Source: Pseudomonadota bacterium (lineage in GTDB: Bacteria > Pseudomonadota > Gammaproteobacteria > Xanthomonadales > Xanthomonadaceae). From it: 41,918 nt of DNA. The position numbers were made by a program, and so were the translations under genes. The stretch spans positions 1 through 41,918 of the forward strand of contig JAEWLO010000068.1 of the NCBI GenBank assembly GCA_023457475.1, given 5' to 3'. Shown piece by piece: positions 1 through 41,819 of this stretch (position 1 is the stretch's first letter; every line of letters starts with the position of its first letter). The notes under the pieces were generated by a model. It saw nothing but the letters and a program-made list of their open reading frames with translations. It searched no databases and was not told the DNA's origin.

Positions 1-1164
1 GATCTGCACAATGCCTGCGTAGTGCCCTTCGGTATCGATAAGGATCACCCGGGTGCCCGAGCCCAGCGGGAAGCGCTCCCGGAAGGTGGCAACGTCGAGA
101 TCCTGGGGGGCCGTGGAGACGCCACGGCGCATCATCAGGCCGGCCCGCAGGTTCTGGACCCAGCCCACGTCCTGGGCACTTTTGATGGTTTCGCCCCGCA
201 GGTGCAGCCGCCACGTGGAGAACGAATAGCCGAACTGCTGGCGCACCAGCGTGTTGGCCACCAGCACCGCGCCCATCACCAGGCTGGTGAGGACAAAGTC
301 GTGGGTGCCTTCGAGTACCAGCATCGCCATCGTCATCGGCGCGCCCAGAGGGGCAGGTTGCCACGGTTTACGGTGGTCTCGATGGCGGCGATCAGCCGCA
401 TGATTGCCACGCTCGCCCCGCCACACGCGACGCCCAGCAGCGAATACACGGCGTAGTCGGCCGCATTCACGGTGCTGACGGCCGCTGCCGGCAGCATGTA
501 TCCCTCCACGCCGGTTTGATCGGCAAGGAACGCCCCTGCCAGGGATGCGAGCACGATAGGGGCCAGTGCCGCAGGGGAGTAGGACCCCAGAACCACCTCA
601 AAGGCGTAGAACGCACCGGCCAGCGGCGCGCCGAAGGCCGCCGGCCGCGCCGGCACCCACCAGAATCCGCATGTCCATGCGGCGCAGGCGGAGCACGCGC
701 CCGAGTTGGGATCCGGTGCCTGCGCCCATCTGGGTGTACGTGGCCTCGAGGCCGACCGAAGCCCCCGAGCCGTTGGACAGCAGCGTCTGGCTGGCCACGA
801 TCAGGTTGTCGCGCATCGACATGCGGCCGCCGTGCAGCGCATTGGCCTCCACGGCATCGATGAGGGGACGCTTCAAGCGCGCGGCCCATACGCTGATCAG
901 CCCCACCAGCAGCCCGCCCACCGGTAGCGCCAGCAGGGCCACGGCCGCCACGTTCGCCTGCAGGCTCAGGCTTCCGTCGGCCTCCATGCCGTACAGCCAG
1001 CGCTGCAGTGAATGCGCCAGCAGCCCCTGAAGACCCGTCAGTGCCCCCGCCAGCAGCCCAACCAGCAGCGCCAGGGCAATGAACCAGGCCTCGCCGGACC
1101 GGAAGCGGCCGCGCAGTGCAGCCCATGCGTTGCCTAGAGGTTCTGAAGGAAGCGAGGGTGCCAT
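1..1164 (-). pseudogene. ClC-family chloride channel/H+ antiporter (C-terminal CBS region), disrupted; continues past the left window edge
   Basis: ClC motifs are split over three frames: 1164->~640 (GSGASVGLEATYTQMG...RILVGAGA), ~640->~340 (AAFGAPLAGAFYAFE...LPLWAR) and ~340->1 (APMTMAMLVLEGTHDF...FGYSFSTWRLHLRGETIKSAQDVGW...HYAGIVQI, open to the edge). The segment normally lying between LWAR and APMTM is missing. Confidence 0.88.
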
Positions 1165-1283: not shown

Positions 1284-1535
1284 CTACCGCCGTTCCCCGG
1301 AAGCCCAGGACGTCGACTTCTCCACCGGTGCCGGCTCGGGCACCACCGCATCTGCGGCGCGCGTCATGTTGCTCCACACGCTCAGATCCACGCCACGGTT
1401 CTTTTCCAGTTCCACGAACTTTTCCATCATGGCCCGCAGCACCTGCGCCGGCTGCAGGTGTGACCGCCACGCCGCTTCCTTGAATCGGCTGCGCAGCGCC
1501 TCATCCACCTTTACCCGCACCACCGGCTTTCTCAT
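1284..1535 (-). CDS. Small putative ribbon-helix-helix (RelB/CopG-like) DNA-binding protein, 83 aa
   Basis: MRKPVVRVKVDEALRSRFKEAAWRSHLQPAQVLRAMMEKFVE has the alternating beta-strand followed by two helices typical of RHH. Its ATG (1535) overlaps the symE TGA (ATGA, 1532-1535). Confidence 0.6.
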   Translation of the reverse strand: MRKPVVRVKVDEALRSRFKEAAWRSHLQPAQVLRAMMEKFVELEKNRGVDLSVWSNMTRAADAVVPEPAPVEKSTSWASGERR

Positions 1536-1879
1536 AGAACGCTCCAGGGGTGGCGACGGGGATGGCTGTGCGCCTCCACCTCTGCGTAACGCACTTCGCA
1601 ATGCAGGCGCGTGGGTACGCGTGGCAGTGGCTCAACCGCGTTGGCCACCGCTTCGATCACAAGCCGGGTTCCGATGGCTTCGATCCGTACGGTGGCACCC
1701 ACGCCGAACCCCATCTGCTCCAGCCAGCGGCCGCTGACCATCAGAAACGGCGTGGCACTGCCGGCGGAGTAGCCGCCAGCGAGGGGAGGGGGATTATCGG
1801 CGCCGCGACCGCCACCGCAGGAACGGGGGGCGTCGTTGGACGGGCAGGTGTATAGCGGGTCTTCCCAATGCATGTGCAT
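1532..1879 (-). CDS. symE: SymE-family (AbrB-fold) toxin, 115 aa
   Basis: PFLMVSGRWLEQMGFGVGATVRIEAIGTRLVI matches the SymE signature PxLxLxGxWLxxxGFxxGxxVxV. RBS GAGGAG at 1894-1889. Confidence 0.82.
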   Translation of the reverse strand: MHMHWEDPLYTCPSNDAPRSCGGGRGADNPPPLAGGYSAGSATPFLMVSGRWLEQMGFGVGATVRIEAIGTRLVIEAVANAVEPLPRVPTRLHCEVRYAEVEAHSHPRRHPWSVL

Positions 1880-1907
1880 CGTGATCTTCTCCTCGGGAGA
1901 AAAGGGG

Positions 1908-2070
1908 AAAAACCCCCTCGCGTTTTTACGGCGAGGGGCCGGGAGGTTAGAAGACCGTGAGCAATACCGGCGGGCTTATTTCCCCTTGTGAGGGGTCTTG
2001 TATTAGCCACCCTCCCGACTAGGGACATTGCACTACTAATTTATTGCTCAAGGGCCTTCTAAACCCGGGG
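1908..2070 (-). ncRNA. Structured leader with C4/CI-like antisense RNA domain (copy L): upstream target sites, antisense multi-stem and terminator-like hairpin
   Basis: Outer stem 2019-2011/1946-1938. Loop UAUUGCUCA (1966-1958) is complementary to UGAGCAAUA (2050-2042). Bulge CUUCUAA (1953-1947) is complementary to UUAGAAG (2062-2056). Hairpin 1938-1914 is followed by a U-tract (1912-1908). Homologous to 41334-41479. Confidence 0.75.
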
Positions 2071-2113
2071 CGAACCATGCACGGGATCAGCGACGATGGG
2101 AAGCGCCTTGTTT

Positions 2114-41102: not shown

Positions 41103-41333
41103 TGCGCGGTGTGTGCCGGGAGCGACAGTGTTGCGAGCGAGGCGCTCGATTTTTTCGAGCGTTCGAATGCGATAGAACTGCGACCTAGTGCCTAGCTAAA
41201 TGCGTGCTGGAACACGAAATTTCTCGAAACGATTCGTTTGCGACACGCATATCGCCCGGCATTCCGCAGCCAACGACACGGCCCGAACAAGGTCGCGTTC
41301 CAGTAGGCTCACGTCTGTCGCATGGTGTGCCTT

Positions 41334-41479
41334 GGGTGTCAGAACCCGATGTGGAGCTACAAGTTGGACGTCCTGTGTCGGGAGGGTGGCGCAATACAAA
41401 ACCCTCGCGGAAATACGTCGCACCGTAACCACATCACGGTTCTGAACCTCCCGACTCCCTCGCCATCCCGGCGAGGGAG
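41334..41479 (+). ncRNA. Structured leader with C4/CI-like antisense RNA domain (copy R)
   Basis: Outer stem GTCGGGAGG(41377-41385)/CCTCCCGAC(41447-41455). Inner stem ACCGT/ACGGT with loop CCACATC complementary to GATGTGG (41348-41354). GGTTCTGA (41438-41445) is complementary to TCAGAACC (41339-41346). 10-bp hairpin 41455-41479. Confidence 0.75.
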
Positions 41480-41498
41480 AACACAGAGGAGAACCAAG

Positions 41499-41819
41499 AT
41501 GCATGACGACTGGGCCGAACTGACCCCCGAACAACGCGCCTTCCGCAGGCGCTTCTGGCGCGCGCCGAAGAGCGTGATGATCAATGCGCTCTGCCACGAC
41601 GGCCTGGAAACCTACCCGGGCTGCCCGACCGTTCCCTGCCTGAAGACACGAGGGCTGTGGATTCGTGACCTGGGGGTTGAGCCGGGAACGCGCATGTACC
41701 TGGGCACAGGACCAGAGCTGATCGTGCTTGCTGCGGATCCGTCACGAGAGGCGCTGTCCAAGGCGCTGGTGAGGTTTGAGAAGACGGGGGAAGCGTGGAG
41801 GTTGGTGCCAGCTGGGTAG
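41499..41819 (+). CDS. Divergent SymE-like protein, 106 aa
   Basis: PCLKTRGLWIRDLGVEPGTRMYL aligns to the SymE signature; RBS GAGGAG; same leader and MHxxW start as the left SymE gene. Confidence 0.65.
   Translation: MHDDWAELTPEQRAFRRRFWRAPKSVMINALCHDGLETYPGCPTVPCLKTRGLWIRDLGVEPGTRMYLGTGPELIVLAADPSREALSKALVRFEKTGEAWRLVPAG

Follow-up and report, generated by a model that had tools for sequence, protein, structure and literature searches.

SymE-like genes in a Xanthomonadaceae genome follow sRNA-Xcc1-type RNAs whose loops match target sites in their own leaders

Introduction

Two SymE-like genes lie near opposite ends of a 41,918-nucleotide stretch of DNA (contig JAEWLO010000068.1, assembly GCA_023457475.1; the window below means this whole stretch), and their leaders share one scaffold with different unpaired segments. 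This raises the question of what RNA the leaders encode, and whether it could control the gene behind it. SymR, the known regulator of SymE, is an enterobacterial antisense RNA. The original prediction for the window put forward another arrangement, in which a same-strand RNA resembling the C4 and CI immunity RNAs of phages would serve as antitoxin through loops that co-vary with targets in its own leader. Here, we follow up this proposal at the two loci, copy L and copy R, and in homologous leaders.

Results

Layout of the two modules

Both modules run in the order b1 hairpin, a1, a spacer of ~22–25 nt, sRNA-Xcc1 RNA, hairpin 3, ribosome-binding site and gene, with the features as follows.

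Copy L
2052–2066, minus strand: b1 target hairpin, GGG / UUUAGAAGG / CCC, read from the sequence as the complement of b'
2056–2062, minus strand: b1 site UUAGAAG, in the loop of the b1 hairpin
2042–2050, minus strand: a1 target site UGAGCAAUA, Watson-Crick complementary to the a' loop over 9 nt
From 2019, minus strand: scaffold GTCGGGAGGGTGGC..AATACAA..GGAAATA, read from the sequence
1930–2019, minus strand: sRNA-Xcc1 element (Rfam RF02221, 56.2 bits, E 1.5e-7, full model 1–87)
2011–2019 with 1938–1946 (CCTCCCGGC), minus strand: closing stem P1, part of the sRNA-Xcc1 element
1958–1966, minus strand: a' loop UAUUGCUCA, the loop of hairpin 2
1947–1953, minus strand: b', CUUCUAA, in the 3' junction
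1901–1937, minus strand: hairpin 3, CCCCUCGC..GCGAGGGG then GUUUUUCCCCUUUU, from sequence and predicted fold, terminator-like by eye
1532–1894, minus strand: Shine-Dalgarno GAGGAG (1889–1894) and SymE-like ORF of 115 aa, ATG (ATG-CAC) at 1879
1284–1535, minus strand: second ORF of 83 aa, probable ribbon-helix-helix (RHH) protein, start overlapping the symE stop (ATGA)

Copy R
41334–41347, plus strand: b1 hairpin GGGU..ACCC, with site UCAGAACC at 41339–41346
41348–41354, plus strand: a1 site GAUGUGG, from complement scoring
41377–41463, plus strand: sRNA-Xcc1-like element (Rfam RF02221, 45.6 bits, E 3.2e-7, under the cut-off of 53)
41429–41435, plus strand: a' loop, the loop of hairpin 2
41438–41445, plus strand: b', in the 3' junction
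41447–41455, plus strand: 3' strand of closing stem P1, CCTCCCGAC
41456–41479, plus strand: hairpin 3, CUCCCUCGCC..GGCGAGGGAG, from sequence and predicted fold, without a U-run
41486–41819, plus strand: Shine-Dalgarno GAGGAG (41486–41491) and SymE-like ORF of 106 aa, ATG (ATG-CAT) at 41499

On re-reading the sequence of both copies, every motif and complementarity that had been listed was found in its place; the b1 match of copy R, given as 5 nt, is complementary to b' as claimed and extends over 8 nt (UCAGAACC). The stem arms of hairpin 3 in copy L are CCCCTCGC and GCGAGGGG, and this hairpin is absent from the terminator scan list because its 9-nt loop exceeds the 8-nt limit of the scan, while at hairpin 3 of copy R the scan called no terminator. 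Both modules lie between ordinary chromosomal genes, copy L next to a ClC channel gene and a GNAT gene, and copy R next to an amylase-family gene. A non-exhaustive look found no integron context beside either. The palindromic repeat GTAGAGCCACGCCCTGCGTGGCT, considered as a possible integron attC site, is scattered near other copies of the RNA and absent near L and R.

The RNA is of, or close to, the sRNA-Xcc1 family

Covariance-model searches show that the RNA preceding both SymE-like genes belongs to, or is close to, Rfam family sRNA-Xcc1 (RF02221, gathering cut-off 53 bits), a cut-off reached by copy L and missed by copy R. This answers the question, raised in the original prediction, of whether the RNA is already catalogued. 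An sRNA-Xcc1 search of the bacterium's own genome also recovered copy R and gave 11 copies in all, and in the model alignments of L and R the closing stem P1, the AAUACAA-bearing hairpin 1 and the variable hairpin 2 are all present. sRNA-Xcc1 was discovered in strain 8004 of Xanthomonas campestris pv. campestris, where Northern blotting and RACE mapped a stable 88-nt RNA without a1b1 (PMC2996969). The RNA has since been discussed as acting in trans and as linked to virulence, and published predictions give it many targets (PMC2996969). That it lies upstream of symE in integron cassettes of Xanthomonas was described in 2025 (PMC12444791). The family and its symE adjacency are known, and for the C4-like logic we found, in the main texts searched, no paper tying sRNA-Xcc1 or symE to a C4-type mechanism. 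No DNA similar to the copy L leader was found in plasmid and phage collections, and viral contigs held no exact match to the scaffold.

Loops and leader sites match copy by copy

Pairing was scored by exact complement, whole-module duplex folding having been set aside as uninformative because of the GC-rich flanks. The scoring shows that the hairpin 2 loop (a') and the 3' junction (b') match, as predicted complements, a1 and b1 of their own leader, on a scaffold common to both leaders, as had been proposed from L and R. Across the 11 copies of this genome the b pairing comprises at least 7 Watson-Crick bases in every copy and the a pairing does so in eight; by eye, site a of L009 pairs with G-U wobbles, and L004 and L010 lack a clear site a pairing in the 11-copy comparison. 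The score with the own leader was the highest in its row, without ties, in nine of the 11 copies, with a within-genome mean of 14.6 for own and 6.3 for cross pairs. A score of 13 or more was reached with the own leader at 34 of 41 loci but by just 28 of 1382 cross pairs, and in named genomes at 64 of 71 loci, against 64 of 3330 cross pairs.

The expectation that loops and targets would co-vary over homologous leaders was also borne out. In an alignment of 19 leaders, 89.2% of the cells were paired, against 77.6% after shuffling, and none of 500 shuffles was as high; nor did any of 500 shuffles reach the observed value in any of five pair-count measures, and slid controls on the same alignment gave 31–52% paired. 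The b helix was 92.5% paired and the a helix 70.4%, with two-sided changes at all 13 pairs; the six b pairs of columns 26–31 were paired in 19/19 sequences, again with two-sided changes at each. Closing stem P1 was 99.4% paired in the 19 leaders, and the stem of the b1 hairpin covaries too (93.4% of cells paired, 0/500 shuffles as high). G-U pairs in the alignments of the a and b helices and the b1 stem are confined to the RNA-coding strand, which argues for an RNA of this strand. Together, the alignments show that compensatory changes maintain the pairing on a scaffold that hardly varies.

The genome is GC-rich and repeat-rich, and these properties are all that speaks for chance complementarity, or a DNA-level repeat devoid of RNA function, as the source of the matches. 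We regard that explanation as scarcely credible, since it is contradicted by the own-versus-cross statistics and the shuffle and slide controls, by strand-specific G-U pairs, and by an Rfam family whose RNA has been detected experimentally.

Each copy has its own address

The same scoring shows that every copy in the genome carries its own specificity: on a nearly invariant scaffold, the a site differs in all 11 copies and the b site comes in 10 versions. For all eight copies with two defined sites, the two-site target was found only at the own leader (3.37-Mb assembly, 76% complete). The R-type target has one additional match in the assembly, with its sites in reversed order, and the UGAGCAAUA string of copy L occurs four times over both strands of the 3.37-Mb assembly.

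Sites downstream of the RNA gave a different picture. For b2/a2, the two-site score stays under 13 in all 11 copies of this genome, and downstream a2/b2 sites were rejected for them, with longest own matches averaging 4.2 nt against 5.4 nt across loci. We also rejected the idea that the start-codon region pairs with a conserved box, GCAUGGUG, located 5' to the b1 hairpin. Such a pairing looks convincing in L011, L010, L044 and L069, but own ranks are scattered overall, and own duplex energies (mean −17.0) are no better than those of cross pairs (mean −15.4). Among 41 sRNA-Xcc1 loci, however, eight have b2/a2 sites at the ribosome-binding site, which ties the family to the C4 design.

Comparison with C4 and other leader RNAs

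A bona fide C4 and c4-a1b1 locus exists in the same genome, and its layout is that of the L and R modules, in keeping with the claimed likeness to C4. The order of its parts is the same, and C4 shares with L and R a closing stem, two hairpins, a' in the hairpin 2 loop and b' in the 3' junction, as well as a small hairpin with b1 in its loop and a1 coming next, and an RNA on the same strand as, and upstream of, the gene that it controls. A genome-wide C4 model search found C289 and one weak site among the 150 of 1541 candidates that were scored, a lower bound. The models of C4 (RF01695), c4-a1b1 (RF03163; both in clan CL00128) and isrK had no match in the L or R leader at E up to 10.

In P1/P7, C4 works by way of a2/b2 and is a substrate of RNase P. 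The C4 locus of this genome has downstream a2/b2 sites, whereas L and R, compared with P1/P7 C4, lack a2/b2 at the ribosome-binding site and a terminator after a1, and their cargo is SymE rather than icd/ant. As L and R have no such downstream sites, the P1 mechanism cannot be transferred to them. Of the C4/CI-like control originally envisaged, the architecture stands, but the downstream silencing step, by pairing at or after the ribosome-binding site, is seen in none of the 11 copies.

The sRNA-Xcc1 of Xanthomonas shares with L and R the covariance-model family, P1, the AAUACAA hairpin and the variable hairpin 2 and junction; L and R differ in their compact leader, which has no terminator between a1b1 and the RNA and no b2/a2. 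P4 CI, which we liken by description, is processed from a leader on the strand of its target and can pair with a site further upstream in that transcript (PMC4825925). The shared strand and the upstream complementarity recur in L and R, but this seqA/seqB/seqC immunity uses one complementary segment with upstream and downstream sites and premature termination, and L and R have no downstream site. In IsrK of Salmonella Gifsy-1, an a1b1-type element pairs in cis with the downstream RNA to give an inactive message, which a short RNA of the same locus reopens in trans (PMC4825925). This isrK-orf45-anrP leader (RF01394) resembles L and R in its upstream a1b1-type element and in the cis pairing within one transcript that is predicted for them, and the isrK model overlaps c4-a1b1 at the C4 locus of this genome. 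Its trans-acting short RNA is, however, the upstream element with a Rho-independent terminator of its own, and it activates; in L and R the upstream element lacks a terminator and the expected stable species is the downstream C4-like core. E. coli SymE/SymR shares with copy L a SymE-type (AbrB-fold) protein and a presumed control by RNA. SymR is transcribed opposite to symE and spans its 5' end, whereas the candidate RNA at L and R is co-directional and upstream. At E up to 10 the SymR model matched neither strand of 1850–2150 and 41250–41540, consistent with the proposed difference from SymR, although an antisense RNA of another kind may be present there.

Folding and transcription of the leaders

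In all 11 leaders of this genome the predicted minimum-energy fold contains the cis helix between a1b1 and a'b', and blocking a1b1 costs a predicted 12.5–34.7 kcal/mol, with no consistent shift in the predicted accessibility of the ribosome-binding site. In L and R, the interval from a1 to the RNA holds no T-run and no terminator, judged from the sequence and the terminator scan. A T-run is present in 50 of 71 sRNA-Xcc1 loci of named genomes; the compact leaders, which lack it and have b1 and a1 23–43 nt before the RNA, come from records titled Stenotrophomonas at 19 of 21 loci. A sigma-70 promoter scan found no sites near copy L or R.

These folds are what would be expected if the leader worked purely in cis, the a1b1/a'b' helix being an intramolecular masking or gating fold (cf. 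isrK structure A) with no trans RNA and no antitoxin role, and a helix of this kind would by itself yield the covariation, in leaders that, in L and R, lack a terminator between a1b1 and the RNA. We nevertheless consider a purely cis role unlikely. The Xanthomonas homologue accumulates as 88 nt without a1b1 (PMC2996969), its target sites are presented in a loop and a single-stranded segment, like those of trans-acting C4, and 11 a sites and 10 b sites on a nearly invariant scaffold are a diversity for which a cis-only fold has no need.

Genes behind the RNA

The SymE-like protein of copy L matches Pfam SymE_toxin at 33.1 bits (cut-off 29) and NCBIfam SymE at E 8.5e-4, far under the cut-off of that model. 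The protein of copy R has no Pfam match at E up to 10 and matches NCBIfam SymE at E 0.039; it is 37% identical (pairwise, E 2e-12) to its L004 paralogue, which matches SymE_toxin at 20.2 bits, and it has the RLRGxW(L/M) core common to the aligned SymE-like proteins. Copy R would thus belong to SymE_toxin by transitive similarity only, without a direct domain match.

sRNA-Xcc1 is not specific to SymE. In a panel defined by the RNA, SymE_toxin was matched by only 5 of 28 downstream ORFs, and many loci elsewhere encode GYFLPEDSQ-type proteins after it, hence the idea of a module family dedicated to SymE was not upheld. Such interchangeable cargo, with 23 of 28 ORFs lacking a SymE match, is what would be seen if sRNA-Xcc1 were a trans regulator of unlinked genes, with a1b1 serving as a decoy or for autoregulation and the gene behind the RNA left uncontrolled. 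Trans regulation of unlinked genes was proposed in the first description, and published predictions name many genes (PMC2996969); the terminator-like hairpin between the RNA and symE of copy L fits with this account. It is nonetheless a very unlikely one: no other two-site target exists in the 76%-complete assembly, at 8 of 41 loci the same loops match ribosome-binding-site sites of the adjacent downstream gene, and SymE-like ORFs follow compact leaders at at least 12 of 21 named loci.

The 83-aa ORF of copy L matches Pfam RHH_10 at E 0.084, and a profile of three paralogues of its product matches the PutA RHH domain (2gpe, 2rbf) at E 0.0045–0.005. RHH-like genes also stand behind the SymE genes of L005 and L006, and at some loci an RHH-type ORF comes immediately behind the RNA. 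The ATGA overlap, the conservation of this partner in L, L005 and L006, and its occasional place right behind the RNA would suit a real protein antitoxin or repressor of SymE in such type-1 modules, with the RNA as a general leader. Copy R and the other type-2 modules, however, have no RHH-like gene and have kept RNA and targets, the matches behind the RHH assignment are weak (E 0.0045–0.084), and the loop/target covariation would go unexplained, so that we hold an RHH antitoxin to be highly improbable as the main control.

Discussion

The observations behind the original prediction were upheld and its interpretation in part. We favour, at a probability of about 0.6, a reading in which the SymE-like gene is the cargo of a leader with C4 architecture, and the sRNA-Xcc1 RNA is addressed to b1/a1 of that leader and exerts an immunity-like negative control. 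From the sequence evidence we infer control of SymE by this RNA. Leader and gene would form one transcript, which is an assumption given that no promoter-like site was found. Within it, a1b1 and a'b' would form an almost unbroken cis helix of ~15–20 bp, masking the RNA and competing with closing stem P1. A stable core of ~85–90 nt would be released, as for the Xanthomonas homologue, and would recognise in trans no leaders other than those from its own locus, setting the amount of full-length SymE message that is made or survives. The net effect would be a negative, immunity-like control of SymE through cleavage of the long duplex or premature termination. Since downstream sites are lacking in L and R, the ribosome-binding site would not be blocked directly. 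Type-1 modules, L among them, probably have a further, protein-based level of control in the translationally coupled RHH protein. Alternatively, the effect on SymE could be positive, as for IsrK.

More tentatively, and with the odds against it, compact leaders may represent a distinct class of RNA-controlled toxin module, in which an antitoxin-like RNA lies upstream on the same strand and transcript and has a two-part address in the 5' leader only. A cis-masked leader opened by its own RNA would then provide every one of the 11 SymE paralogues with an on/off memory that is its own and reinforces itself, with addresses driven apart by selection against cross-talk, as in P1/P7 heteroimmunity. 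The divergence in specificity could reflect drift and compensation rather than such selection.

Architecture suggests that the Rfam C4 clan and sRNA-Xcc1 may belong together, and sRNA-Xcc1 gains a concrete candidate role as a C4-type RNA addressed to its own leader. The 11 mutually distinct copies in one genome are a natural set of orthogonal RNA-RNA pairs. SymE is described as the one type I toxin family spread over several phyla (PMC5367252), and the L and R loci suggest how SymE homologues may be controlled outside the enterobacteria.

A catalogued RNA family precedes both SymE-like genes

The leaders of the two SymE-like genes in the window, copy L and copy R, match one RNA family.

1930-2019, minus strand: copy L, sRNA-Xcc1 (RF02221), 56.2 bits against a cut-off of 53, the sole above-cut-off Rfam match in the window
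41377-41463, plus strand: copy R, sRNA-Xcc1 model under permissive filters, 45.6 bits, E = 3.2e-7, below cut-off

The original prediction had left open whether the RNA was catalogued; the Rfam check gives a catalogued family. The C4, c4-a1b1, isrK and SymR models did not match either leader at E values up to 10, which for SymR is in keeping with the contrast drawn with E. coli, where symE is repressed from the opposite strand.

Reading both regions recovered every predicted element at both copies. From the 5' side, a small hairpin whose loop is rich in purines comes first, with a second site immediately 3' of it, and a spacer leads to GTCGGGAGGGTGGC..AATACAA..GGAAATA. A variable stem-loop and a short unpaired stretch come next, then CCTCCCG(G/A)C, the CCCTCGC/GCGAGGG hairpin, and finally GAGGAG ahead of ATG-CAY. 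Two parts of the RNA, the hairpin-2 loop (a') and the 3' junction (b'), match target sites in their own leader (a1 and b1), which in the compact form seen at L and R lie 23-43 nt 5' of the RNA with no terminator in between. As predicted, the copy L loop UAUUGCUCA is the exact complement of upstream UGAGCAAUA, and the junction CUUCUAA that of UUAGAAG. In copy R, CCACAUC pairs with GAUGUGG as proposed; the second match is also present, at 8 nt (GGUUCUGA with UCAGAACC), longer than first described. Hairpin 3 is terminator-like with U-runs in copy L but not in copy R, and no promoter was recognised around L and R.

Directly 5' of the b1 hairpin, a GCAUGGUG box is conserved at 2071-2080 (minus strand), 41320-41329 (plus strand) and at the equivalent position in other copies; it may be a promoter element, mark a 5' end or form a closure helix. 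Pairing of this box with the start-codon region is not supported, the two being complementary in few copies and overall no better matched than between different loci. A palindrome-containing spacer motif, TTGGACGTCC, is conserved between a1 and the closing stem of the RNA (P1) in copy R (41364-41373) and many same-genus leaders; copy L is without it. In copy R, a 165-aa reading frame (41322-41819, plus strand) stays open from the GCATGG box across the entire RNA and continues in frame into the SymE ORF. In this GC-rich DNA it is probably open by chance, since a stop interrupts the matching part of the L leader.

Eleven copies with their own addresses

The assembly (3.37 Mb, 543 contigs, 76% complete) holds 11 sRNA-Xcc1 matches, two of them above cut-off. 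All 11 copies have a Watson-Crick complement of b', at least 7 nt long, at a fixed upstream place, and eight have one of a'; the a' match is not clear-cut in two copies (L004, L010), and in a third (L009) a' pairs through G-U wobbles, as read by eye from the sequence. The two-site score, which measures the match of a'/b' to a1/b1, averages 14.6 against a copy's own leader versus 6.3 against the other leaders, and in 9 of 11 rows no other leader scores as high as the own one. The L and R leaders have no mutual match (scores 0 and 10), and in the assembly each of the eight targets with both sites defined occurs as a pair in its own leader only, apart from one extra hit for the R type in reversed order. 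Lying 39 kb apart and pointing outward, L and R are simply two of the genome's 11 paralogues. Several modules on other contigs (L001, L003, L005, L008, L009 and L010) are flanked by a palindromic repeat, GTAGAGCCACGCCCTGCGTGGCT, often as inverted pairs; none was seen near L or R within the window.

Loops and targets covary

Covariation of loops and targets across homologues, on which the original prediction turned, is present in the pair counts of 19 compact leaders (the 11 own copies and eight from the same genus, aligned with MAFFT). In the named structure, 89.2% of cells are paired, versus 77.6% in shuffles and 31-52% in slid controls, and none of 500 shuffles reached any of the five pairing measures. 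At columns 26-31, all 19 sequences keep the six b pairs, each of which has two-sided changes; column 27/156, for instance, is AU in 12, GC in five and CG in two. Two-sided changes also occur at all six pairs of the a helix, and its 70.4% paired cells are an underestimate, since R is shifted by one column in this alignment. P1 is 99.4% paired in these leaders, and the b1 hairpin stem, 93.4% paired, covaries as well. The helices contain G-U pairs, which would be C-A mismatches on the opposite strand, so the structure belongs to the RNA of this strand. The structure is real and strongly supported.

The RNA is present in 33 of 150 genomes of the same family. In a panel defined by the RNA (30 loci from 30 of these 33 genomes, plus the 11 own copies), 34 of 41 own pairs scored 13 or more versus 28 of 1382 pairings between loci whose modules clearly differ. 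At least 119 stretches, in records titled Xanthomonas, Stenotrophomonas, Luteimonas, Lysobacter, Pseudoxanthomonas, Rhodanobacter, Dyella and others, contain an exact 22-nt scaffold pattern. Nine of 80 scaffold loci were left out, being too close to the locus end or missing the 3' strand of P1; among the matches listed, 64 of the 71 kept reached 13 with their own leader versus 64 of 3330 cross pairs. In a SymE-defined panel, a regular expression placed the scaffold upstream in 16 of 29 loci, eight of which are compact and from the same genus.

The C4 plan

The same genome carries a true C4 locus.

L042:897-1113 (G000 contig C289), minus strand: bona fide C4 (69.3 bits), preceded by c4-a1b1 (53.4 bits)

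An isrK-like match (49.2 bits) overlaps c4-a1b1, both models covering the same DNA. The locus runs from a hairpin to b1 (UUGGCAG), displayed in the loop of a small hairpin, and a1 (UCCAAGG), then through a terminator with a U-run to C4, b2, an a2 that overlaps the Shine-Dalgarno sequence, and lastly the ATG of the next ORF. Both b2 and a2 lie at the ribosome-binding site of that ORF; within C4, a' lies in the hairpin-2 loop and b' in the 3' junction. C4 and sRNA-Xcc1 have consensus structure lines of identical topology, although neither model matches the other's members. Most sRNA-Xcc1 loci outside the genus share the element order, including a terminator-like hairpin after a1, and 8 of 41 have b2/a2 beside the ribosome-binding site, among them the best-scoring SymE cassette-type loci (L012-L014). 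In the 11 own copies, no downstream site reached 13 (0/11), and the longest own matches were no better than cross matches. Because locus order, structure topology and some b2/a2 sites agree, we conclude that sRNA-Xcc1 works on the C4 plan.

Among the matches listed, a T-run lies within 75 nt upstream of the RNA in 50 of 71 loci; of the 21 others, 19 are in records titled Stenotrophomonas (named genomes) and at least 12 have an ORF with the SymE core motif next. This suggests that the present genome belongs to Stenotrophomonas or lies close to it. Terminator-bearing leaders mostly precede proteins with an N-terminal GYFLPEDSQxRL motif (loci L016-L041, L073-L152), and ORFs of this type have almost no Pfam match.

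Proteins behind the RNA

A SymE-like ORF lies 3' of the RNA in 9 of 11 copies by alignment; seven of 11 downstream ORFs match SymE_toxin at E up to 0.01, three above the Pfam cut-off.

1532-1879, minus strand: L ORF, SymE_toxin, 33.1 bits (cut-off 29)
1284-1535, minus strand: conserved 83-aa ORF, overlapped by the L SymE gene by ATGA

The R ORF has no Pfam match; its pairwise identity to a paralogue with a weak SymE_toxin match is 37% (E = 2e-12), and it shares the RLRGxW(L/M) core in alignment. Counterparts of the 83-aa ORF, 80-83 aa long and overlapping the stop by ATGA, follow other type-1 SymE genes (L005:1982-2221, L006:1983-2222). A three-sequence profile weakly matches the PutA ribbon-helix-helix (RHH) domain (E = 0.0045), and by sequence the ORF may encode a protein partner or repressor of SymE. 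The downstream ORFs of L001 and L003 have an RHH-like C-terminal half. In some copies, the place of the SymE gene right behind the RNA is taken by an RHH-like ORF, or by an ORF that joins a degenerate SymE portion to an RHH-like one.

L001:1655-2119: RHH-like or fused ORF behind the RNA
L003:1653-1988: the same; also L085, L093, L119

Copy L is flanked by a ClC-channel gene on one side and a small membrane ORF and a GNAT gene on the other; copy R lies downstream of two amylase-family genes. The ClC-channel gene (1-1164, minus strand) has an internal stop in one frame: either the region holds two ORFs, or the assembly is frameshifted there.

Standing and proposed mechanism

Neither the RNA family nor its place next to symE is new. 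PMC12444791 describes symE with sRNA-Xcc1 as the most widespread Xanthomonas integron cassette and takes the upstream position of the RNA to suggest "a divergent regulatory mechanism"; in passages of PMC12189769 and PMC7313666, sRNA-Xcc1, C4 and isrK stand unlinked in one list. Literature searches of main texts found no paper proposing a C4-type self-addressed design for sRNA-Xcc1 or symE. What appears to be new in print is the C4-type logic with its covariation, and the compact variant before SymE that has upstream sites only.

The function of the modules we infer from their structure. In predicted folds, a1b1-a'b' pairing is part of the minimum-energy structure of all 11 leaders (10 + 9 bp around a small internal loop in L, 8 + 7 bp in R); it displaces P1 in nested folding, and forbidding it is predicted to cost 12.5-34.7 kcal/mol. 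A stable 88-nt species was mapped in Xanthomonas (PMC2996969), and IsrK is described in PMC4825925 as forming cis-inactive conformers that are reopened in trans. With these precedents, and with targets displayed as a loop and a single strand, the leader would be masked in cis by the a1b1-a'b' helix, and the RNA, once released, would act in trans on the same a1b1 address. In silico accessibility of the ribosome-binding site showed no consistent change when a1b1 was blocked. Activation of SymE instead of repression is a live alternative; on our analysis we favour negative control, in which SymE would be held down by cleavage of a long duplex or by premature termination.
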